DNA of 64,000 nucleotides from Candidatus Nealsonbacteria bacterium (lineage in GTDB: Bacteria; Patescibacteriota; Minisyncoccia; Minisyncoccales; JAGMDC01): NCBI GenBank assembly GCA_030612885.1, contig JAUWMZ010000002.1, positions 80,923-144,922 on the forward strand, in the 5' to 3' direction. Positions 2,811-24,823 of this stretch are shown piece by piece; the stretch's first letter is position 1; each line of letters opens with the position of its first letter. The translations under genes and the position numbers were made by a program. The notes below the pieces were generated by a model. The model did no database searches. It was not told the DNA's origin and worked only from the letters and a program-made list of their open reading frames with translations.

Positions 2811-3029
2811 AACTTTTTTAAAATGAAAAAATAAAGTAATAGATCTTCTTTAAAATTTTTGCTCGCCTAATTTTTAAAAAATTTTGGCGAGCGGGCAAAT
2901 AAGAAGTCGAATATTTGCCTTAACAGAATAGTTATTTCTGAAAGCATAAAATATGCTCTTTCTGAAATAATTAAATAAAATGGCAAAGAAAAAAAAGAAA
3001 AAGAAGAAGAAGTAAATTTCTTCTCCAAT

Positions 3030-3096
3030 CCCGCACCTTTTCTAGACAGAAGCCAAAGGCTTCAAAAATTCAAAGCAGTCCAGAAAAGGTGCGGGG
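3030..3096. repeat. GC-rich palindromic element, family 1 (termini CCCGCACCTTTT / AAAAGGTGCGGGG)
   Basis: 18-bp arms with one mismatch, an inner hairpin GAAGCC-AAA-GGCTTC, then a T run. Lies just upstream of secA. Confidence 0.8.
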
Positions 3097-3132
3097 TTGT
3101 TTTTTTATAAAAATCTGTTAAAATTAGGCGTA

Positions 3133-5640
3133 ATGAAGGTTTTGTCTAAACTCTTTGGCGATGCCAATGAAAAATATTTAAAGAAAATTCAGCCAATCGT
3201 TGACCAGATAAACAACCTCGAACAAGAGTTCGAGGGTTTTTCTGGTGAAAAGCTTCGTTTGGAGTCAGAAAAATTCAAAGAAGAATTAAAAAATGGCAAG
3301 ACGCTTGATGATATATTGCCAAAGGCATTCGCCTTAGCAAGAGAAGCAGCTAAAAAAACCTTAAATCAAAGGCATTTTGATGTTCAGCTAATCGGAGGCA
3401 TTGTTCTGCACCAAGGCAAAATCGCGGAAATGAAAACAGGTGAAGGAAAAACATTGGCATCTACTTTGGCGATTTATTTGAACGCTTTAACCGGCAAAGG
3501 AGTTCATGTAGTAACAGTTAATGATTATTTGGCCAAAAGAGACACGGTTTGGATGGGACAAATTTATCATTTGCTTGGTTTGTCAACAGGTTGTCTGGTG
3601 CATGATACGGCCTGTATTTATGATCCAGAATTTCAGCAGGAAAATCAAAACAATGATTCAGAACTCAAAACTAATGAAAGAGATAAAGAACGGGATACTT
3701 TGGGCGGATTTAAAGTTATTGAAAGTTATTTAAGACCTTGTTCCAGAAAAGAAGCATATGGCGCGGATATTACTTATGGCACTAACAATGAATTTGGTTT
3801 TGATTGTTTAAGAGATAATATGGTTTATGACTTAAAAGATAAAGCCCAGCGTGATTTTAATTTTGCCATTATTGATGAAGTTGACTCAATTTTAATTGAT
3901 GAAGCCAGAACCCCTTTAATTATTTCAGCTCCGGATGTAGAGGCAACAAAAATGTATTCAGAGTTTGCCAGTATTATTCCGAAACTAAACAAAGAAACCG
4001 ATTATGAAATTGATGAAAAAATGAAAGCTGTTACCCTAACTGAATCGGGCATTGAAAAAATAGAGAAAATTTTAGGTATGGAGAATATTTATCAGGAAAA
4101 AGGCATGAAATATTTACATCATTTAGAGCAATCTCTCCGCGCTCAAGCCCTTTTTAAGAAAGACAAGGATTATGTGGTAAAAGATGGTCAGGTTATTATT
4201 GTTGATGATTTTACCGGCCGTTTGCTTCCTGGCCGCCGTTATTCCGGAGGATTGCATCAAGCAATTGAGGCAAAGGAAGGAGTAGCAGTTCAGCCGGAAT
4301 CAAAAACCTTGGCTTCCATTACTTTTCAGAATTACTTTCGGCTTTATGATAAATTAGCAGGAATGACAGGAACAGCCGCCACTTCAGCAGAAGAATTTGA
4401 CAAAGTTTATAGTTTGGAAGTAGTGATTATACCAACAAACAAACCAATGGTTCGTGAGATATCGCCGGATAGAATTTATAAAACTGAAAACGGAAAGTTT
4501 AAGGCAGTGGTGGCAGAGATTAAAGCAAGGTATGAAACAGGCCAGCCAGTTTTAGTTGGTACCACTTCTATTGAGAAAAATGAATATCTTGGCAAATTAT
4601 TAGATATAGAAGGAGTTCCTCATCAGATTTTAAATGCCAAGCATCACCAGAAAGAAGGAGAAATTATTGCCCAGGCAGGCAGATACAATGCAGTGACCAT
4701 TGCTACAAATATGGCTGGCAGGGGAGTTGACATAATTTTAGGCGGTAATCCGTTTGACAAAAAAGAAGCAGAAAAAGTTATTAAAAGCAAAGGGCTTTGC
4801 GTTATCGGTACAGAGAGGCATGAAGCGAGGAGAATTGACAATCAGCTTAGGGGACGGTCTGGCAGGCAGGGTGACCCTGGCTCTTCACAGTTTTTTGTCT
4901 CTTTGGAAGATGATTTGCTAAGGATTTTCGGCGGAGAGAGAATCCAGAAGATGATGGAAATGCTGAAAATTCCGGAAGACCAGGCGATTGAAGCCAAAAT
5001 GGTTTCTGGAGTAATTGAATCAGCTCAGGAAAAGATTGAAGGAATGAATTTTGATTTAAGAAAACATTTATTGGATTATGATGATGTTTTAAACAAACAT
5101 CGGGATGTAATCTATAAAAAGCGGAGAGAAATCTTAGAGACAGGAAGCGAAGAGCGAAAAGCCAAAATTATAGAAATGGTTAAAAAACAGGGAAAGACAG
5201 AGCAAGATTATGAGAAAAAAGAAAAAGAAATAGGTGAAGAAAATATGAGAAAAGTGGAAAAGATTATCAGCTTGCGGAGTTTGGATTTCCTTTGGATGGA
5301 TCATTTGGAAAATATGGAGTATTTAAGGGATTCTGTCCGCTTGCGCGCTTATGGTCAGCAGGATCCCTTGGTAGAATACAAAAATGAAGGCCATAAAATG
5401 TTCCGCCAGCTTCTTAATATGATTGAGACCAATATTGTAGATACTCTTTTTAGGGTTAGTTTGACCAAACCAGAAGAAAAAGCTGTTCCTAGTCCTGGGT
5501 TGCAGTTCAGCCAGCCGTCTTTTTCTGCACCATCTCGTAACGAGGCCGGGCCTCGTAAAAACAAACCAGGTCGAAATGATACCTGCCCCTGCGGCAGCGG
5601 CAAAAAGTACAAAAAGTGCTGCTGGCCCAAATACGGATAA
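3133..5640 (+). CDS. secA: preprotein translocase ATPase SecA
   Basis: DEVDSILIDEARTPLIIS motor motif and C-terminal Zn finger CPCGSGKKYKKCC. ATG 3133 (MKVLSKLFGD) is preferred over the track's TTG 3097, which lies in a hairpin element. Confidence 0.95.
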   Translation: MKVLSKLFGDANEKYLKKIQPIVDQINNLEQEFEGFSGEKLRLESEKFKEELKNGKTLDDILPKAFALAREAAKKTLNQRHFDVQLIGGIVLHQGKIAEMKTGEGKTLASTLAIYLNALTGKGVHVVTVNDYLAKRDTVWMGQIYHLLGLSTGCLVHDTACIYDPEFQQENQNNDSELKTNERDKERDTLGGFKVIESYLRPCSRKEAYGADITYGTNNEFGFDCLRDNMVYDLKDKAQRDFNFAIIDEVDSILIDEARTPLIISAPDVEATKMYSEFASIIPKLNKETDYEIDEKMKAVTLTESGIEKIEKILGMENIYQEKGMKYLHHLEQSLRAQALFKKDKDYVVKDGQVIIVDDFTGRLLPGRRYSGGLHQAIEAKEGVAVQPESKTLASITFQNYFRLYDKLAGMTGTAATSAEEFDKVYSLEVVIIPTNKPMVREISPDRIYKTENGKFKAVVAEIKARYETGQPVLVGTTSIEKNEYLGKLLDIEGVPHQILNAKHHQKEGEIIAQAGRYNAVTIATNMAGRGVDIILGGNPFDKKEAEKVIKSKGLCVIGTERHEARRIDNQLRGRSGRQGDPGSSQFFVSLEDDLLRIFGGERIQKMMEMLKIPEDQAIEAKMVSGVIESAQEKIEGMNFDLRKHLLDYDDVLNKHRDVIYKKRREILETGSEERKAKIIEMVKKQGKTEQDYEKKEKEIGEENMRKVEKIISLRSLDFLWMDHLENMEYLRDSVRLRAYGQQDPLVEYKNEGHKMFRQLLNMIETNIVDTLFRVSLTKPEEKAVPSPGLQFSQPSFSAPSRNEAGPRKNKPGRNDTCPCGSGKKYKKCCWPKYG

Positions 5641-6605: not shown

Positions 6606-7265
6606 ATGTTTTTCTTTTCAATATTTCCAACAGGATGCCTGATTTTAATTATAGCTATTTTCTTTCTGCCCATTCTTTTTGTTTTGGGCTTTTTTCATAT
6701 TATTACTATTGGTTTCGGGAGGCTAGGCATTTCACCAGAAGCAACATTTTTGCTGCTTCTTTTAATTTTATTCGGTTCCTTAGTAAATATCCCTTTAACC
6801 AGAAAGAAATTGGTTCAGGTTAAAGAATATCGCTTTTTTGGTTTTTTTGCCAAACCGAATTTAATGATTCAAGGCCTGGCTATTAATTTAGGCGGCGGGG
6901 TTATTCCTCTTTTACTCTGTATTTTCTTTTTGTCTAAAATTCCATTAGAACCAGTTTTAGCAGCTACTGTTTTTATGGTAATTATCTGCTATTATTTGGC
7001 TCGGATTGTTCCAGGCAGGGGAATAACTTTGCCTTTTTTTGTTCCGCCTGTTTTTTCAGCTATTTTTGCCTTAATTTTAGCCCCTGGATTTGCTGCTTCC
7101 TGTGCTTTTGTCTCTGGCGTTTTAGGAGTTTTAATCGGCGCTGATATTTTGAATATCAGAAAAGCCCAAAAACTAAGTCCGGGCTTTATTTCTATTGGCG
7201 GAGCTGGCGTCTTTGACGGTATTTTTTTAGTGGGCATTGTTTCCGCTCTCTTAACCAGCTTTTAA
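6606..7265 (+). CDS. polytopic membrane protein, DUF1614-like
   Basis: 219 aa and multi-TM; Gly-rich loop NLGGGVIPLLL and IGADILN resemble DUF1614. Confidence 0.45.
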   Translation: MFFFSIFPTGCLILIIAIFFLPILFVLGFFHIITIGFGRLGISPEATFLLLLLILFGSLVNIPLTRKKLVQVKEYRFFGFFAKPNLMIQGLAINLGGGVIPLLLCIFFLSKIPLEPVLAATVFMVIICYYLARIVPGRGITLPFFVPPVFSAIFALILAPGFAASCAFVSGVLGVLIGADILNIRKAQKLSPGFISIGGAGVFDGIFLVGIVSALLTSF

Positions 7266-7268
7266 AAA

Positions 7269-7291
7269 CCTGCGGGAAGCCATCCCGCAGG
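7269..7291 (+). terminator. hairpin CCTGCGGGA-AGCCA-TCCCGCAGG followed by a T7 run
   Basis: Perfect 9-bp stem followed by TTTTTTT, 4 nt after the stop at 7265. Two more GC hairpins follow at 7301-7329 and 7348-7370. Confidence 0.75.
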
Positions 7292-7420
7292 TTTTTTTAT
7301 TTCGGAGACGGGATATTCCCGTCGCCGAAAGAACTTGCCCGAAGGGATGCCCCACCCTTTAGGTGGGGCAGTTCATTTGACAATTTGGATTTAAAGGATA
7401 CAATAAGATAATATTAAAAT

Positions 7421-12142: not shown

Positions 12143-13753
12143 ATGTCTGAGATAAATTTTTTTGCAGAAACAAACTTTCGTAATATCAGAAAGAAATTTG
12201 GTATAAAAACCGATGATAGACGCCGGCATGTTTATGCTGTAGGAAAGACAGGTATGGGCAAAACAGTTATGCTGGAAAATATGGCTATTCAGGATATTCA
12301 ACAAGGCAATGGAATAGGTTTTGTTGATCCTCATGGCGAAGCAGCGGAAAATCTTCTTGATTTTGTGCCAAAAAATAGAATCAAAGATGTTATTTATTTT
12401 AATCCAGCTGATTTGAATTATCCTATTGCTTTTAATGTTATGGAAGAGGTAGATCCAGAAAAAAGGCATTTAGTGGCTGGCGGTTTGATGGGCGTTTTTA
12501 AAAAAATCTGGCCTGATGTCTGGTCAGCCAGAATGGAATATATTTTAAACAACTGTATTTTAGCTCTTTTAGAATATCCTGGTTCCACTCTTTTGGGTAT
12601 CAATCGGATGCTGGCTGATATTGATTATCGCAAGAAAGTTATAGAAAAAGTAACTGATCCGGTAGTAAAAGCATTTTGGACGCAAGAATTTGCCAGGTAT
12701 AATCAAAGGTATGAGACAGAGGCGACTGCGGCTATTCAAAATAAAATTGGCCAGTTTATTTCCGCACCTTTAATTAGAAATATTATTGGCCAAACAAAAT
12801 CAACTATTAACGTAAGGCAGGCAATGGATGAAGGAAAGATTTTAATATTGAACTTGTCTAAAGGGAGAATAGGGGAGGATGCTTCCCGCTTGTTGGGCGC
12901 TCTTTTAATTACAAGAATACAGTTAGCAGCTATGTCCAGAGTTGATATGCCAGAAGAAAAAAGAAGAGATTTTTTTCTTTATGTAGATGAATTTCAAAAC
13001 TTTGCCACCGAGTCCTTTGTTAATATCTTATCTGAAGCGCGAAAATACCGTTTGTCTTTGATTTTGGCTCATCAATATATTGCCCAAATGGAAGAAACAG
13101 TAAGAGATGCAGTTTTCGGGAATGTAGGCACTATTATTTCTTTTAGAGTAGGAGCCGAAGATGCTGAATTTTTAGAAAGAGAATTCCTGCCAGAGTTTAA
13201 TGGTTCTGATTTAGTTAATTTATCCAAATATAATATCTATTTAAAGCTAATGATTGATGGCTTGGCAGGCAGGCCGTTTTCAGCTGAAACTTTAGCTCCT
13301 GAATCAAGGCTAGAGGAATCAAACAAAGAAGCAATTATCCAAGAATCCAGAAAACAATACGGTACAGAGAAAAAATTTGTTGAGGAAAGGATTATTCAAT
13401 GGGCAGAGCCTATAAAAGGAATTGAACCGGCATTGGCAGAACCGCAGGTTCTTTACGATGCCCAATGCCAGAATTGCAAGAGAATGATAAAAGTTCCATT
13501 TAAACCAGATGGAGTAAGGCCTGTTTATTGCAAGACTTGCCTTGAAAAAATAAAGAAAACAGAAAATGAACCACCCAGTTCCCAAAGTAAAAAAGAACCA
13601 GGCATATCTTTAAATGAGGCAGTGGAAAAAGAACCTATTTTTTTCTCTCCTCATAGAAAAGTTCAAGAGAAAAGGGAGAAACCCAAAAGAAGAGAAGTTA
13701 ATACTGAAGAATTAAAAGAAGTTTTAAAAGAGTCTCTGAAAAAAGAAGAATGA
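12143..13753 (+). CDS. VirD4/TraG/TraD-like P-loop ATPase with C-terminal zinc ribbon
   Basis: Walker A GKTGMGKT, FFLYVDEFQNF, LILAHQYIAQM. C-terminal CQNCKRMIKVPFKPDGVRPVYCKTC. Confidence 0.65.
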   Translation: MSEINFFAETNFRNIRKKFGIKTDDRRRHVYAVGKTGMGKTVMLENMAIQDIQQGNGIGFVDPHGEAAENLLDFVPKNRIKDVIYFNPADLNYPIAFNVMEEVDPEKRHLVAGGLMGVFKKIWPDVWSARMEYILNNCILALLEYPGSTLLGINRMLADIDYRKKVIEKVTDPVVKAFWTQEFARYNQRYETEATAAIQNKIGQFISAPLIRNIIGQTKSTINVRQAMDEGKILILNLSKGRIGEDASRLLGALLITRIQLAAMSRVDMPEEKRRDFFLYVDEFQNFATESFVNILSEARKYRLSLILAHQYIAQMEETVRDAVFGNVGTIISFRVGAEDAEFLEREFLPEFNGSDLVNLSKYNIYLKLMIDGLAGRPFSAETLAPESRLEESNKEAIIQESRKQYGTEKKFVEERIIQWAEPIKGIEPALAEPQVLYDAQCQNCKRMIKVPFKPDGVRPVYCKTCLEKIKKTENEPPSSQSKKEPGISLNEAVEKEPIFFSPHRKVQEKREKPKRREVNTEELKEVLKESLKKEE

Positions 13754-14874
13754 AAACTTTAAAAGATTTTAATTTTCAAGGAAAAAGAGTTTTATTAAGA
13801 ACAGATTTTAATGTTCCTTTGTCAGAACAAAGGGATATTTTAGATGATTTTCGGATAAAATCAGTTATTCCTACTATTGAATACTTAATAAAGAATAGAG
13901 CTAAGATTATTATAATCAGCCATCTTGGCCGGCCGGAAAAAAAAGAAGAAAAATTTAGTTTAAGGCCAGTTGCTTTGAAATTAGAAGAATTATTAAATAA
14001 GAAGATTAAGTTTTTTCCGGATTGTATTGGCAATAAGGTTGAAAAGGAAATAGAAAAAATGGAATCAGAAGACATTGTTGCTTTAGAGAATTTAAGATTT
14101 TACAAACAAGAAAAAGAAAATAATGAGAAATTTGCGAAGGACTTGGCAAAATTAACAGGAGATATTTACCCCGCACCTTTTGTCAGCAGGGTGCCTTCGG
14201 TACTTAAATTAAGAAAGTTAGCTGACAAAAGGTGCGGGGTTTATATTGATGATGCTTTTGCTGTTTGCCATCGTGAGCATGCTTCTATTGTTGGCATTCC
14301 AAAATATTTGCCAGCAGGAATTGGATTTTTAATAGAAAAAGAAATTAAAAATTTAAATAAAATTATAACAAGTCCCAAAAAGCCGTTTGTTTCTGTTCTT
14401 GGAGGGAAAAAAGCAGAAACAAAAGTAAAATTTATTGATAAAATTTCTAAAATTTCTGATTTCGTTTTAATCGGCGGTCTAATACCTAAAGAAATAAAAG
14501 AGCAAAACATAAAATTTAAAGAGCCGGAAAAAATTATTCTGCCTGTGGATTGGAAGGAAAATAATTATGATATTGGAGAAAAAACTACAAAAATTTTTAA
14601 AGAAAAAATTAAAACAGCAAAAACCATTTTCTGGAATGGTCCTTTGGGCAAGTTTGAAGAAGAAAAATTTGCTAAAGCAACAAAAGAAATTGCCAGGGCT
14701 ATTATTGGCAGTAACGCTTTTTCAGTAGTTGGAGGAGGGGAGACAATTGAGTTTTTAACCAGGATTGGCTTAATTAAAAAATTCAGCTTTATATCCACTG
14801 GCGGCGGCGCAATGCTTGACTATATAGTTGACGAAAAGTTGGTAGGTTTAGAAGCAATACGTTCGGGAATATGA
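13750..14874 (+). CDS. pgk: phosphoglycerate kinase (carries a 25-codon palindromic insertion)
   Basis: RTDFNVPL, IDDAFAVCHREHAS, ISTGGGAMLDY. ATGA overlap with the upstream stop. Confidence 0.9.
   Translation: MKTLKDFNFQGKRVLLRTDFNVPLSEQRDILDDFRIKSVIPTIEYLIKNRAKIIIISHLGRPEKKEEKFSLRPVALKLEELLNKKIKFFPDCIGNKVEKEIEKMESEDIVALENLRFYKQEKENNEKFAKDLAKLTGDIYPAPFVSRVPSVLKLRKLADKRCGVYIDDAFAVCHREHASIVGIPKYLPAGIGFLIEKEIKNLNKIITSPKKPFVSVLGGKKAETKVKFIDKISKISDFVLIGGLIPKEIKEQNIKFKEPEKIILPVDWKENNYDIGEKTTKIFKEKIKTAKTIFWNGPLGKFEEEKFAKATKEIARAIIGSNAFSVVGGGETIEFLTRIGLIKKFSFISTGGGAMLDYIVDEKLVGLEAIRSGI
14169..14239. repeat. GC-rich palindromic element, family 1, in-frame inside pgk
   Basis: CCCCGCACCTTTTGTCAGC-N33-GCTGACAAAAGGTGCGGGG with perfect 19-bp arms. 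TTTA sits on both flanks. Confidence 0.85.
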
Positions 14875-16743: not shown

Positions 16744-17107
16744 CAAGCAGGCAAGGCAATCGCTGAGTATTCAGTTCGCTGAATGCTTAGAGGAAAGTCC
16801 GAACACCCATTCTAAGCAATTTATGTGCTTAGTCTAAAAAGATAGCGGCTAACAGCCGTCGACCGCAAGGTTAGAGGTGCGAACAGTGACGCTTTGAGCC
16901 GAAAGGTAAAAAGCACCCTTTACAGGGTGAGCCTTGGTGGAAACATCAGGGGTGAAACGGCTAAATCCTTATCGGGTGCAAGAACAAGCATTTCGGCAAT
17001 CTCCGGATTTGCCGAAATGAAAAAGTAGTTCGCTTGACCCTGAGAGTAATCAAGGGGCTAGATAAATGATTGTCCAAGACAGAATTCGGCTTATTGCCTG
17101 CTTGGGC
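16744..17107 (+). ncRNA. rnpB: RNase P RNA, bacterial type A
   Basis: GAGGAAAGTCCG at 16790-16801 and ACAGAATTCGGCTTA at 17079-17093. P1 pairing CAAGCAGGCAA (16744) with TTGCCTGCTTG (17094-17104). Confidence 0.85.
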
Positions 17108-17142
17108 TTTTTTATTTGCTTTAAAAAAGTTAAAATTAAACT

Positions 17143-21256: not shown

Positions 21257-21652
21257 ATGATAACAAAATTTGGAAAATATAAAAAGAGTAGAAAGAGTAA
21301 TTTACTTTCAATGTTTTCTTTTTTGCTTTTAGGAGTGTTTATTTTTGGAGTCATTACTTTCTTGGTTGTTTCTAATTGGAGAATAAGCCAAAAAAGAGCT
21401 GACTTTCGTTTAAAGATAAAAGAATTGACAGAGGAGATTAAGGTTTTAGAAGCAAAGAAAGAACAATTAGAAGCCGGCATTTATCAGTCCACGCAGGATG
21501 AGTATTGGGAGGAAAAAATCAGGGAGCAGGGTTATAAAAAACCAGGCGAGGAGGCAGTGGTGATTAAAAAAGAAATAGAAGAAAAAGAAAATCAAGAAGA
21601 AAAAGAAAAAAGTTTTTTAGATAAATTTTTAGAAAAATTCAAGCGGGATTAG
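21257..21652 (+). CDS. FtsB/DivIC-like septum formation initiator
   Basis: N-terminal TM then a coiled coil (RLKIKELTEEIKVLEAKKEQLEAG). The last 11 nt overlap tRNA-Gly. Confidence 0.5.
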   Translation: MITKFGKYKKSRKSNLLSMFSFLLLGVFIFGVITFLVVSNWRISQKRADFRLKIKELTEEIKVLEAKKEQLEAGIYQSTQDEYWEEKIREQGYKKPGEEAVVIKKEIEEKENQEEKEKSFLDKFLEKFKRD

Positions 21653-21712
21653 TTGAGCGGTTCAACACAACCTTCCCAAGGTTGAAAGACGGGTTCGACT
21701 CCCGTATCTCGC
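21642..21712 (+). tRNA. tRNA-Gly(CCC)
   Basis: Hand fold: acceptor GCGGGAT/ATCTCGC, anticodon arm CAACC-TTCCCAA-GGTTG, T arm ACGGG-TTCGACT-CCCGT. No encoded CCA. Confidence 0.8.
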
Positions 21713-21718
21713 TCGCTT

Positions 21719-21791
21719 TGCCGATGTAGCTCAACTGGTAGAGCAGGCGCTCCGTAAGTGTCAGGTTGTCGGTTCGAGACCGACCATCGGC
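21719..21791 (+). tRNA. tRNA-Thr(CGU) (anticodon loop TCCGTAA)
   Basis: Acceptor GCCGATG/CATCGGC, D arm GCTC-AACTGGTA-GAGC, T arm GTCGG-TTCGAGA-CCGAC. The anticodon stem needs two G-U pairs. Confidence 0.7.
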
Positions 21792-21802
21792 TATAGAAAA
21801 TT

Positions 21803-21861: not shown

Positions 21862-22960
21862 ATGAAGGATATTGAAGAAAAAATTAAGAATTTAGAAGAT
21901 AAAATCCTCTATTTAGAGGACTGTCTTTGACTTAATTAAAAAACAGGAAAAAATTAAAGAATTAGAAAAAGAAATTCAGAAACCGGATTTTTGGCAAAAC
22001 AAGCAAAAGGCAGCTGAAATTTCCCAGGAATTAGCTGATTTAAAAGATGAGAAAGAAGAATTTGAAAAATTTAAAGAAAATTTAGAGGAATTAAAAGAGA
22101 TAATTAAATTAAACGACGAGAGCTTAGAAAAAGAAATAGAAGAAAGAATTTTTCAATTTGAAAAAGAAATAAAAAAAGAGGAAGAAAAAACTTTTCTTTC
22201 CGGAAAATACGACAAAGGAAACGCTGTTTTATCCATATATTCCGGCGCCGGCGGACAGGATGCTCAGGACTGGGCAACAATCCTTTTACGAATGTATGAA
22301 AGATATTGCCAGCAAAAAGAATTTAAGGCAAAAATTTTAGAACAATCCTTTGGAGAAGGAGGAGGGCCGGAAGGAAGGATTGGAACCAAATCAGCAACTC
22401 TGGAAATTAAAGGAAAGTATGCTTTTGGATTTTTAAAGAAAGAGACCGGAGTTCACCGCTTGGTTCGCATTTCTCCATTTTCTCCGCAAAAGCTTCGCCA
22501 TACCTCTTTTGCTTTAATTGAAGTTTTGCCAGAGATTTCAAAAATAGACGAAGAAGAAATGAAAATCAGTCCGGATGATTTGAGAATTGATGTCTTTCGG
22601 GCTTCTGGTCCCGGCGGCCAATACGTCAATAAAAGGGAATCAGCTGTTCGCATCACTCATCTTCCGACTAATATCGTGGTAAGCTGCCAGGGTGAGCGCC
22701 TCCAGGGCTTGAATAAAGAAAAAGCAATGAAATTATTGTATGCTAAGCTTTATCAAATGAAAGAAAAAGAAAGACAAAAAGAAATCAAGGAAGTGAAAGG
22801 AAAACCAGTTTCTGCTGAATGGGGGAGTCAAATCAGGTCTTATGTTCTGCATCCTTATAAAATGGTAAAGGACTTGCGGACTAACATTGAAACCTCTAAT
22901 GTGGAAGCTGTTTTAGACGGAAATTTGGATGAATTCATTGAAGCAGAAATTAAAAGCTAA
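21862..22960 (+). CDS. prfB: peptide chain release factor 2 with programmed +1 frameshift
   Basis: Frame 0 reads MKDIEEKIKNLEDKILYLEDCL-TGA. The +1 frame continues DLIKKQEKIKEL... into track ORF 22292..22960 (SPF, GGQ motifs). Confidence 0.9.
21925..21931 (+). other. RF2 +1 frameshift site CTT TGA C
   Basis: CTTTGAC, preceded by the SD-like AGAGGA at 21915-21920. Confidence 0.9.
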
Positions 22961-22974
22961 ATATAGACCTCTAT

Positions 22975-23655
22975 ATGATTAAATTTCAAAATGTAAGCAA
23001 AATCTATAATCCTGATATTTACGCCCTTGATAATATCTCTTTAGAGATAAAGGAAAAGGAGTTTATTTCTATTGTTGGCAAATGCGGAGCAGGGAAGACA
23101 ACTTTATTGAAATTGCTTTTAGCGGAGGAAAAGCCGAATTCCGGCCAAGTTTTTTTTCAGGACAATGATGTCAATCAAATTAAACCTCATTATATTCCAA
23201 AATTTCGGCGAAAAATCGGAGTGATATTCCAGGACTATAAACTGCTTCCTTCCAGGAATGTTTACGAAAACGTTGCTTATGTAATGGAGGTTATGGGAGC
23301 CAGTAATGAAGAAATTGCCAGAGATGTGCCTCAGGTTCTGGAGATTGTGGGTTTAGCTGAGAAAAGAGAAAATTTCCCGGTCCAGCTTTCTGGCGGAGAA
23401 AAACAAAGAGTAGCGATTGCCAGGGCTTTAATTCACAGGCCTCAATTGATAATTGCCGATGAACCGACTGGTAATCTTGACCCTTATCACACCCAGGATA
23501 TCATAAAACTTTTGGAGAAAATCAATGAATTAGGCACAACAGTTATTTTAGCCACTCATTATAAAGAGATAGTTAATAATTTAAGAAAAAGAGTGGTTAC
23601 CTTAGAAGAAGGTCGGATAATCAGAGACGAGGAAAAAGGAAGATTTATACTTTAA
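22975..23655 (+). CDS. ftsE: cell division ATP-binding protein FtsE
   Basis: GKCGAGKTT, LSGGEKQRVAIARAL, IIADEPTGNLD. Confidence 0.9.
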   Translation: MIKFQNVSKIYNPDIYALDNISLEIKEKEFISIVGKCGAGKTTLLKLLLAEEKPNSGQVFFQDNDVNQIKPHYIPKFRRKIGVIFQDYKLLPSRNVYENVAYVMEVMGASNEEIARDVPQVLEIVGLAEKRENFPVQLSGGEKQRVAIARALIHRPQLIIADEPTGNLDPYHTQDIIKLLEKINELGTTVILATHYKEIVNNLRKRVVTLEEGRIIRDEEKGRFIL

Positions 23656-24597: not shown

Positions 24598-24668
24598 TGC
24601 CGGGTCGGCTAATGGTAGGCCAAATGCCCCTGGAGCATTGAATCTTGGTTCGAATCCAAGCCCGGCAG
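24598..24668 (+). tRNA. tRNA-Gln(CUG) (anticodon loop CCCTGGA)
   Basis: U1-A72 acceptor TGCCGGG/CCCGGCA and G73. Anticodon arm AATGC-CCCTGGA-GCATT, T arm CTTGG-TTCGAAT-CCAAG. Confidence 0.75.
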
Positions 24669-24823
24669 CACGAGTCAGCGCAGTATCGAGGCCGACCGAG
24701 AGGCCTATTTTGAGGCTATTTTTTCACGACGGGTCTAGGGCGTCCTAAACCCGTACTCGTCTAGGGCACCGAACTTTGTTCGAGACTAAACCGTATCAAT
24801 TAGTCGCCATTTGGGCGATTTTT

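Follow-up and report, generated by a model that had tools for sequence, protein, structure and literature searches.

We analyzed a 64,000-nucleotide (nt) stretch of contig JAUWMZ010000002.1 from a Candidatus Nealsonbacteria bacterium (the window, to which coordinates without a locus name refer) and found that its pgk gene contains, in frame, a 71-nt hairpin element at positions 14169 to 14239. This hairpin is probably a non-autonomous member, of the miniature inverted-repeat transposable element (MITE) type, of a widespread family of very small elements that has an autonomous form with a GIY-YIG gene, and it was inserted once and tolerated. We have little doubt that it is a mobile non-autonomous element inserted in frame; that it is mobilized by a GIY-YIG nuclease is a view to which we incline slightly. 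Tentatively, we propose that elements of about 295 bp, whose sole protein is an 85-amino-acid (aa) GIY-YIG nuclease, may be autonomous and that their hairpin-only derivatives spread through the candidate phyla radiation (CPR), Omnitrophota, and neighboring lineages.

The hairpin in pgk and its empty site

The pgk open reading frame (ORF; positions 13750 to 14874, + strand, 374 aa, PF00162) was known from an earlier, sequence-only reading to hold an insert with 19-bp perfect arms and a TTTA duplication, and both features were confirmed. The left arm, CCCCGCACCTTTTGTCAGC (14169 to 14187), of which the initial 13 nt form the conserved family terminus, and the right arm, GCTGACAAAAGGTGCGGGG (14221 to 14239), its perfect complement, enclose a variable core of 33 nt (14188 to 14220), and the element lies between TTTA copies at 14165 to 14168 and 14240 to 14243; no strand was assigned to the element, its arms, or the TTTA copies. 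On the + strand the core folds into a small inner hairpin, GGGUGCC-UUC-GGUACUU, beyond which it is A-rich and unpaired. The predicted RNA fold of the region reaches −48.1 kcal/mol (z = −9.35), and none of 200 shuffled sequences was as stable. Element plus one TTTA equals 75 nt, and the frame is preserved as claimed: removal in silico converts GDIY-PAPFVSRVPSVLKLRKLADKRCGVY-IDDAF to GDIYIDDAF. Translation across the insert (residues 141 to 165) is predicted to read the peptides DIYPAPFVSR and CGVYIDDAFAVCHR, and the right TTTA copy gives the V-Y that restores the core strand VYIDDAF.

Identical insert-bearing pgk genes were present in three independent assemblies (L001 to L003), and a second species (P0002), represented by three more assemblies (L004 to L006), carries the insert at the same place with 69 of 75 nt identical (92%); five of the six differences between the element of the window and that of L004 fall within the core. 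Residues occupied the insert columns in 2 of 66 aligned Pgk proteins, and five relatives of closer length (P0003 to P0007) lack the insert. In the close relatives L007 and L008 the empty site reads GATATTTATATTAATGAT, compared with GATATTTA[71 nt]TTTATATT in the filled state, and the left TTTA copy was identified from the empty site GATATTTATATT. Filled and empty sites match to the base, and the insertion consists of the 71-nt element and a TTTA duplication; the alignment of Pgk orthologues that had been suggested as a check gave exact boundaries.

In the Pgk tree alone, the two insert-bearing sequences were not sisters (branching not resolved), which hinted at precise loss of the element in the insert-free clade. 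Loss is unnecessary, since in 13 of 14 syntenic genes the genome of the window resembled L004, which has the insert, more closely (87.5% aa identity) than L007, which lacks it (80.8%), so that the two insert-bearing genomes group together and one ancestral insertion suffices. These comparisons make a single insertion most likely, in an ancestor shared by two Parcubacteria lineages. We considered and rejected the idea that the insert is exceptionally constrained, as its 69 of 75 identical positions are matched by neighboring core windows that reach 96%. Conservation as an RNA through compensatory changes in the inner hairpin was likewise set aside: the changes were mixed (one double change and two broken pairs), and two sequences make no case.

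Two further observations concern Pgk. Between the window and L004, pgk is the most diverged of the 14 syntenic genes (77% compared to a mean of 87.5% aa identity), perhaps because constraint was relaxed or altered once the element had been inserted. Other Parcubacteria Pgk proteins (P0012, P0036, P0041, P0048/P0084/P0117, and P0062) have unrelated R/S/P/A-rich inserts elsewhere, such as PNPKSEIRNPKQIPKFKIQNSKH and IAKRTSSSSLPSL, and further families of in-frame elements may also be inserting into pgk.

A family of hairpins with conserved termini and a 4-bp duplication

Species-representative genomes and metagenomes were scanned with the pattern CCGCACCTTTT-N30-60-AAAAGGTGCGG, built from 11-nt core termini. 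At least 116 loci were found in the genomes and at least 120 in the metagenomes, whereas chance alone would give about 2 matches to 22 fixed bases in the genome collection (our own estimate). The copy count proposed in the sequence-only reading therefore turned out high, and the search for empty sites that it also proposed succeeded, exactly or nearly so at base level, at two genes, pgk and an NrdG-type activase gene described below. The fetched DNA (1.72 Mb) contained 236 non-redundant copies of 54 to 90 nt (50 to 86 nt for the core between the fixed 11-mers), and several genomes had 4 to 7 sampled copies.

Copies were highly variable inside, with 166 different hexamers after the arm, and their terminal dinucleotides were CC/GG in 143 and TC/GA in 57 cases. 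Many of the hairpins run past the fixed 13 nt by means of unrelated complementary sequence (at least 6 extra pairs in 30% of copies versus 0.8% of shuffles), which fits recognition of a folded substrate. Perfect 4-nt direct repeats surrounded 92 of 234 copies, whereas shifted controls gave no more than 6 and counting inverted repeats instead gave 13. We rejected the possibility that this statistic was inflated by conserved Omnitrophota flanks: after removal of the Omnitrophota copies with conserved flanks and de-duplication of the remaining flanks, the signal was stronger, with a perfect duplication at 77 of 168 copies (46%) versus 5 of 168 (3%) in the shifted control. The duplicated sites were TTTA, TAAA, TTGA, TCAA, TGAA, and TTCA, with a few that were not T...A, which favors a true 4-bp duplication of a T-N-N-A target. 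Three features define the family: inverted termini of 13 conserved bp (YCCCGCACCTTTT), an interior that varies and usually lengthens the hairpin, and duplication of 4 bp at a T-N-N-A target.

The canonical termini YCCCGCACCTTTT...AAAAGGTGCGGGR were found in Saccharibacteria, Parcubacteria, Falkowbacteria, Peribacteria, and other CPR groups and also in Omnitrophota (35 of 35 copies) and in metagenome-assembled genomes (MAGs) labelled Planctomycetia (7 of 7); the family is not private to this type of genome. Spread into Acidobacteriota, Lachnospiraceae, and most Bdellovibrionales/Proteobacteria was rejected, as the matches there have other termini and belong to other palindromes. Five loci of the Bdellovibrionales/Proteobacteria (L022, L066, L079, L101, and L122) carry a different repeat, AAGGTGAG-CCGCACCTTTT...AAAAGGTGCGG-CTCACCTT, that has the 11-mer in common with the family but not the termini. 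Omnitrophota hairpins (L035, L051, L062, L070, L072, L078, and others) sit within a larger conserved repeat, ...GCGAATTAA[element]TAAGTTCGGA..., which points to either a composite element or preferential targeting of another repeat. The motif AAAGGTCGAA recurs directly beside elements at eight loci (L032, L049, L059, L195, L217, L227, L285, and L294).

Copies inside genes are rare and nearly all in phase

Only 14 of 208 copies (about 7%) lay within an ORF, compared to 49% of random positions; a copy was counted as in-gene when its excision in silico left an ORF of at least 60 codons on each side. For 12 of these 14 copies, element plus duplication was a multiple of three and the frame was open, whereas about 14% would be expected from family length and stop-codon statistics. 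Insertions into genes are depleted, and the survivors are nearly all in phase and stop-free.

Three reading frames recur across their arms (NPAPF...KRCGV, TPHLL...KGAGF, and PRTF...KKVRD), and the hosts are unrelated: pgk, an NrdG-type radical-SAM activase, MnmA, the PolI (polA) 5'-3' exonuclease, a family-2 glycosyltransferase (GT2) protein, and a PMT-type glycosyltransferase. Further hosts, as judged by sequence motifs, are a reverse-transcriptase-like protein and a pilin-like leader, neither with a Pfam match, and a giant protein with an intein (Hint)-like segment. The activase (L015/P0236) provides the second empty site: exactly the 21 inserted aa are missing from P0237 and P0238, with which it shares 95% and 93% identity, respectively, so the insertion is recent. 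Another NrdG-type activase, P0245, has a different short insert, SPRPSPRTGEG, at the position of the L015 element. Nested copies were seen in the GT2 gene (L037, ~3900 to 4060), where an element lies within an element, both in frame (HPAPFKQ[TPHLL...KGAGQS]IFDAKKQLLKRCGVK). The copy in the pilin-like leader (L209, 345 to 415) is in frame and duplicates the G-F-T of the prepilin cleavage motif; its extra peptide may be removed along with the leader.

The same termini bracket a small GIY-YIG gene

Four elements of more than 250 bp with family termini were met incidentally (L049, 6694 to 6991; L060, 2341 to 2636; L176, 8107 to 8406; and L222, 3638 to 3930). All four are 293 to 300 bp long, and each has one ORF of 85 to 94 aa that is wholly GIY-YIG (PF01541; E values of 1e-14 to 1e-18). 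To guard against circularity, seven GIY-YIG genes were picked by protein search alone and the surrounding DNA was then fetched. Inverted repeats beginning with YCCC bracketed six of the seven. Three of these (L255, L265, and L294) had the full CCCGCACCTT(T) terminus pair, with the duplications TTGA/TTGA, TTGAA/TTGAA, and TTGA/TTGA, respectively, and three (L245, L275, and L285) had other termini; a short hairpin derivative with nearly the terminus of L285 lies directly beside the L285 cassette. The remaining one of the seven, L291, has kept the left arm alone. GIY-YIG genes in two pattern-derived loci, L080 and L144, had termini of their own, with a TATG/TATG duplication at L144. Wherever the right end was examined, the stop codon was located within or just before the right arm or, in L294, in the duplication.

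The six proteins associated with the CCCGCACC terminus cluster at 54 to 78% identity, and their identity to proteins with other termini does not exceed 60%. Such tight bracketing across 54 to 78% identical proteins implies long co-evolution as a unit. Short copies and GIY-YIG-bearing copies occur together in the genomes VMFS01 (L032, L049, and L090) and CAYRSI01 (L060 and L108). Since the termini and duplications are common to the ~295-bp GIY-YIG cassettes and the short copies, the pgk hairpin most likely derives from a minimal GIY-YIG element and is itself non-autonomous.

The protein belongs to a large family (8,347 representatives at 50% identity, E values up to 1e-3). The model of the nuclease has a predicted local distance difference test (pLDDT) score of 93.8, and by sequence and by structure the nearest solved structures are UPF0213 proteins and Slx1 (1zg2, 6sei, and 7cq2); I-TevI and UvrC gave far weaker matches to the 85-aa protein. 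Y5, Y16, and E62 are conserved among the cassette proteins, and none of the NCBIfam models is specific to the nuclease. Slx1 is an endonuclease that cleaves DNA with branches or stem-loops, and SLX1 acts with SLX4 in eukaryotic DNA repair; to our knowledge, UPF0213 (YhbQ-type) proteins have no link to mobile DNA.

Two cassettes with different termini (L285, 981 to 1263, and L294, 967 to 1273) occupy the same intergenic position, between rpsP and a KH-domain gene, in two genomes, which is either an insertion hotspot or an old insertion. At L265 (1468 to 1772), a full-length cassette replaces the last codons of prfB (...FIEAEL-NPAPF*). In the window, prfB and ftsE are adjacent (~22940 to 22975) with no cassette between them, and the two regions are too diverged for a base-level empty site of the L265 cassette.

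A possible mechanism and how it compares with transposition by a DDE enzyme

We envisage that the nuclease would recognize the hairpin (on single strands) or the cruciform formed by both arms and would cut at the base of the folded arms, as SsnA does on hairpins of single-stranded DNA (ssDNA) and Slx1 on branched DNA. A staggered break of 4 nt at the target, followed by host repair, would then give the 4-bp duplication. The pgk copy would have survived because it adds 75 nt without a stop codon and because the duplication rebuilds the start of a core beta-strand.

Several observations weigh against mobilization by the GIY-YIG nuclease. GIY-YIG enzymes are hydrolytic nucleases, and we know of none that carries out transposition. 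No GIY-YIG gene is present within the 64-kb window, and the duplication is intact at less than half of the copies. Among the GIY-YIG genes, L291 has a left arm only, the homologues L140 and L229 have no recognizable arms, and the sole gene found in an Omnitrophota locus (L080) has termini unlike those of the adjacent short copy. Co-variation of terminus and protein is partial, as L060 and L176 encode divergent proteins and have the same CCCGCACC terminus. In two unrelated contigs, a tRNA-Ser(UGA) gene lies between CCCGCACC arms (L135, 770 to 911, and L174, 4385 to 4537, in opposite orientations relative to the flanks), which means that the arms are able to enclose other cargo. Finally, a fixed 4-bp duplication is the classical signature of DDE transposases.

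Much of this would be accounted for by a conventional MITE that is moved in trans by an unseen DDE-type transposase (for example, one of those with CC ends and duplications of 4 to 5 bp), with the GIY-YIG genes, like the tRNA genes, as passengers or as invaders of the hairpin loop in the manner of homing endonucleases. Such an enzyme typically makes a fixed 4-bp duplication, and the tRNA-Ser cargo, the GIY-YIG genes without arms, and the absence of such a gene from the window are all compatible with it. Even so, we consider it unlikely, if still deserving of attention. Within the 1.72 Mb fetched around the short copies there was no arm pair (CCCGCACCTTTT termini) 0.3 to 4 kb apart that enclosed an ORF other than GIY-YIG, nor any kilobase-scale partner with family termini, whereas all four of the incidentally met long elements carried GIY-YIG. 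Genes selected by their protein alone were tightly bracketed, with the stop codon in or just before the arm, across the range of identities given above, and other GIY-YIG lineages have YCCC termini of their own, at least one of them (L285) with its own short derivative adjacent. Mobilization by the GIY-YIG nuclease accordingly stays our preferred view.

Fate of the insert in RNA and protein

The AlphaFold2 model of the insert-bearing Pgk has a mean pLDDT of 85.5 and keeps the whole fold, with only the insert at about 50. It places the insert between the helix of residues 126 to 136 and the core strand of residues 164 to 167, whose first residues are encoded by the duplication, in line with the surface loop expected from the sequence-only reading. 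The 25 extra residues are predicted to be translated and, judging from the model, are probably tolerated as a disordered or floppy surface loop. What speaks against this step is that a stem of −48 kcal/mol within an essential mRNA should hinder ribosomes.

The stability of that stem, together with the Tyr codons on either side of the element (TAC at 14167 to 14169 and TAT at 14241 to 14243), would suit a hairpin that is skipped or removed at the level of the RNA or ribosome, by bypassing or by cleavage and ligation, so that the Pgk protein is unaltered. This we regard as very improbable: no stop codon follows the presumed take-off site, the six substitutions between the two species have left the insert open in frame in each of them, and removal of the element would not require in-gene copies to be in phase and stop-free, as 12 of the 14 are. 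Rfam gave no match for the pgk copy or for the second copy of the window (3029 to 3096) at the gathering threshold, and searches with E values up to 10 returned sub-threshold noise only.

The intergenic copy upstream of secA and the terminators of the window

The sister copy that had been reported upstream of secA is a 68-nt family member at 3029 to 3096 (no strand assigned) with the termini TCCCGCACCTTTT...AAAAGGTGCGGGG. The claim that it has the termini of the pgk element and a different core held (13 nt are common at each end), but no intact duplication is present (CCAA versus TTGT). A 12-codon ORF precedes it and a secA-like ORF, starting at 3133, follows, and it is also found at the orthologous site in a sister lineage (L045). 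Both window copies have the same layout on the + strand, with a long outer stem, a small GC hairpin just within the 5' arm, and an A-rich unpaired stretch. The 12-codon ORF, MAKKKKKKKKK (2980 to 3015), stops 13 nt before the intergenic copy and is present in L045 too.

A T-rich run, TTGTTTTTTT (3097 to 3106, + strand, read from the sequence), follows the intergenic copy directly, and hairpin and T-run together resemble an intrinsic terminator, a putative function; its loop is much larger than those of the ordinary terminators of the window, and a terminator scanner made no call. If this resemblance and the inner hairpin with its A-rich stretch on the coding strand were taken at face value in both copies, the hairpin could be a structured element that works for the host (a terminator or regulatory hairpin, REP-like) and is not mobile, the pgk copy being a by-product. 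This is even less credible than bypassing, since the duplications, the empty sites at 95% identical alleles, and the nested and in-gene copies all attest insertion and since the ordinary terminators of the window belong to another family of sequences. The idea that the insert is a Pgk loop native to the lineage, or an artefact of assembly, is already refuted, as beyond an insert that is open in frame nothing speaks for it, and the DNA is palindromic with termini common to hundreds of unrelated loci, 64 of 66 Pgk proteins lack the insert, no distant Pgk carries a homologous peptide, and six independent assemblies of two species reproduce it.

The palindrome at 7264 to 7296 was considered as a pair of arms in reversed order and rejected; it is an ordinary terminator. 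It shares the core CGGGAAGCCATCCCG with another terminator-like palindrome at 2078 to 2113, and both are unrelated to the element. Ordinary RNA genes of the window, for a bacterial class A RNase P RNA and for tRNA-Gly(CCC), tRNA-Thr(CGT), and tRNA-Gln(CTG), are located at 16744 to 17108, 21643 to 21792, and 24598 to 24669.

Implications

Should the proposed reading be correct, the ~295-bp elements would be the smallest autonomous DNA transposons known to us, and their mobility would be driven by an enzyme class not known for cut-and-paste or copy-in transposition. The hairpins would be tied to a concrete and very small enzyme, and the way in which an insertion sequence (IS)-like element can function with a 255-bp gene would become testable. 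Their derivatives would have seeded terminator-like intergenic hairpins and new peptide loops in essential genes. The most reduced bacterial genomes, those of the CPR, would then carry active cross-phylum selfish hairpins that rewrite essential proteins in frame, and the phenomenon known from Rickettsia would not be the oddity of one genus. In alignments and structure models of uncultured bacteria, such copies would appear as false "lineage-specific insertions." The inverted termini, duplications, and empty sites would be the first sequence-level evidence for the published suspicion that small modules of GIY-YIG genes and hairpin repeats are mobile, and the pairs of nuclease and hairpin would be candidates for the ssDNA tools proposed for Ssn enzymes.

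Comparison with known systems

The sequence-only reading was not aware of a prior description, and our literature search agreed: no paper was found on this family, on MITEs in CPR bacteria, or containing the terminal sequence, nor on a prokaryotic element that combines inverted termini, a duplication, and a GIY-YIG gene. We are apparently dealing with an undescribed element family of the MITE kind, with a behavior like that of Rickettsia palindromic elements (RPEs) and an unexpected GIY-YIG partner.

Dispersed hairpins that are probably recognized as folded single strands by a small enzyme encoded between hairpins are a trait that the family shares with the repetitive extragenic palindromes (REPs) and bacterial interspersed mosaic elements (BIMEs) of the REP-associated tyrosine transposase (RAYT) systems and with IS200/IS605, but the enzyme there is an HUH tyrosine (Y1) enzyme and here a GIY-YIG nuclease. 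No duplication of the target site arises in REP/BIME-RAYT systems or with IS200/IS605, and REPs lie outside genes.

Among published systems, the nearest is that of the Ssn nucleases with their SRM/NTS (dRS3) hairpin repeats (Chenal et al. 2025; PMC11893778), although its architecture differs from that of the family here. According to the passages of that paper considered here, SsnA is a 94-aa single-domain GIY-YIG protein with Y6, Y17, and E64; Ssn proteins bind the hairpin repeats (NTS/SRM; core ATTCCCGCG...CGCGGGAAT) as ssDNA only and cut a few nucleotides upstream; and the repeats lie on the flanks of the ssn genes and are also dispersed in hundreds of copies, an architecture that the authors call "identical to" that of insertion sequences. 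The likeness extends to a single-domain protein of ~90 aa (85 to 94 aa here, all PF01541) linked to dispersed hairpin repeats, to a similar stem core (TCCCGC...GCGGGA), and to Y5/Y16/E62 here versus Y6/Y17/E64 in SsnA. They also describe a complete small hairpin on each side of an Ssn gene, whereas here the arms pair across the gene and neither is self-complementary, which makes them true terminal inverted repeats. The SRM motif given there, HGTCWYN(0-2)YYVSBRHN(0-5)WNVSBRGN(0-2)RNCYNB, matched nothing in the window or the elements and nothing in the surroundings of nine GIY-YIG genes. The same passages report no target-site duplications, no empty sites, and no gene insertions in frame, all of which are documented here. 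By sequence and fold, the solved structures nearest to our protein are those of UPF0213 and SLX1 proteins.

Bacterial MITEs such as Correia, ERIC, BOX, RUP, and QMITE1 (PMC10969869) are likewise short, non-coding, and multi-copy, with inverted termini and a duplication, and are mostly intergenic and occasionally in frame. The present family has terminal inverted repeats, a duplication of fixed length, small non-coding copies in number, and empty sites in relatives (pgk and the NrdG-type activase), and the earlier MITE-like reading is supported by these properties, by the statistical signal for the duplication, and by the in-phase survivors. Known MITEs derive from IS elements with DDE transposases, whereas the only related coding element here is the ~295-bp GIY-YIG cassette.

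In-frame MITEs are known, and RPEs are the classic case: small palindromic selfish DNA that lies in frame in unrelated housekeeping genes of a bacterium with a reduced genome and is tolerated as an extra peptide (Ogata et al. 2000, summarized in PMC10969869). The comparison with RPEs drawn in the sequence-only reading is apt as an analogy, given the 12 in-phase, stop-free copies in unrelated protein-coding genes. The elements described here are shorter (60 to 90 nt versus ~100 to 150 nt), they have a terminus of 13 bp that is sharply conserved, and a 4-bp duplication of T-N-N-A sites can be demonstrated for them. They differ further in that about 7% of copies are in genes, in their hosts (CPR bacteria, Omnitrophota, and Planctomycetia-labelled MAGs), and in having a candidate autonomous form.

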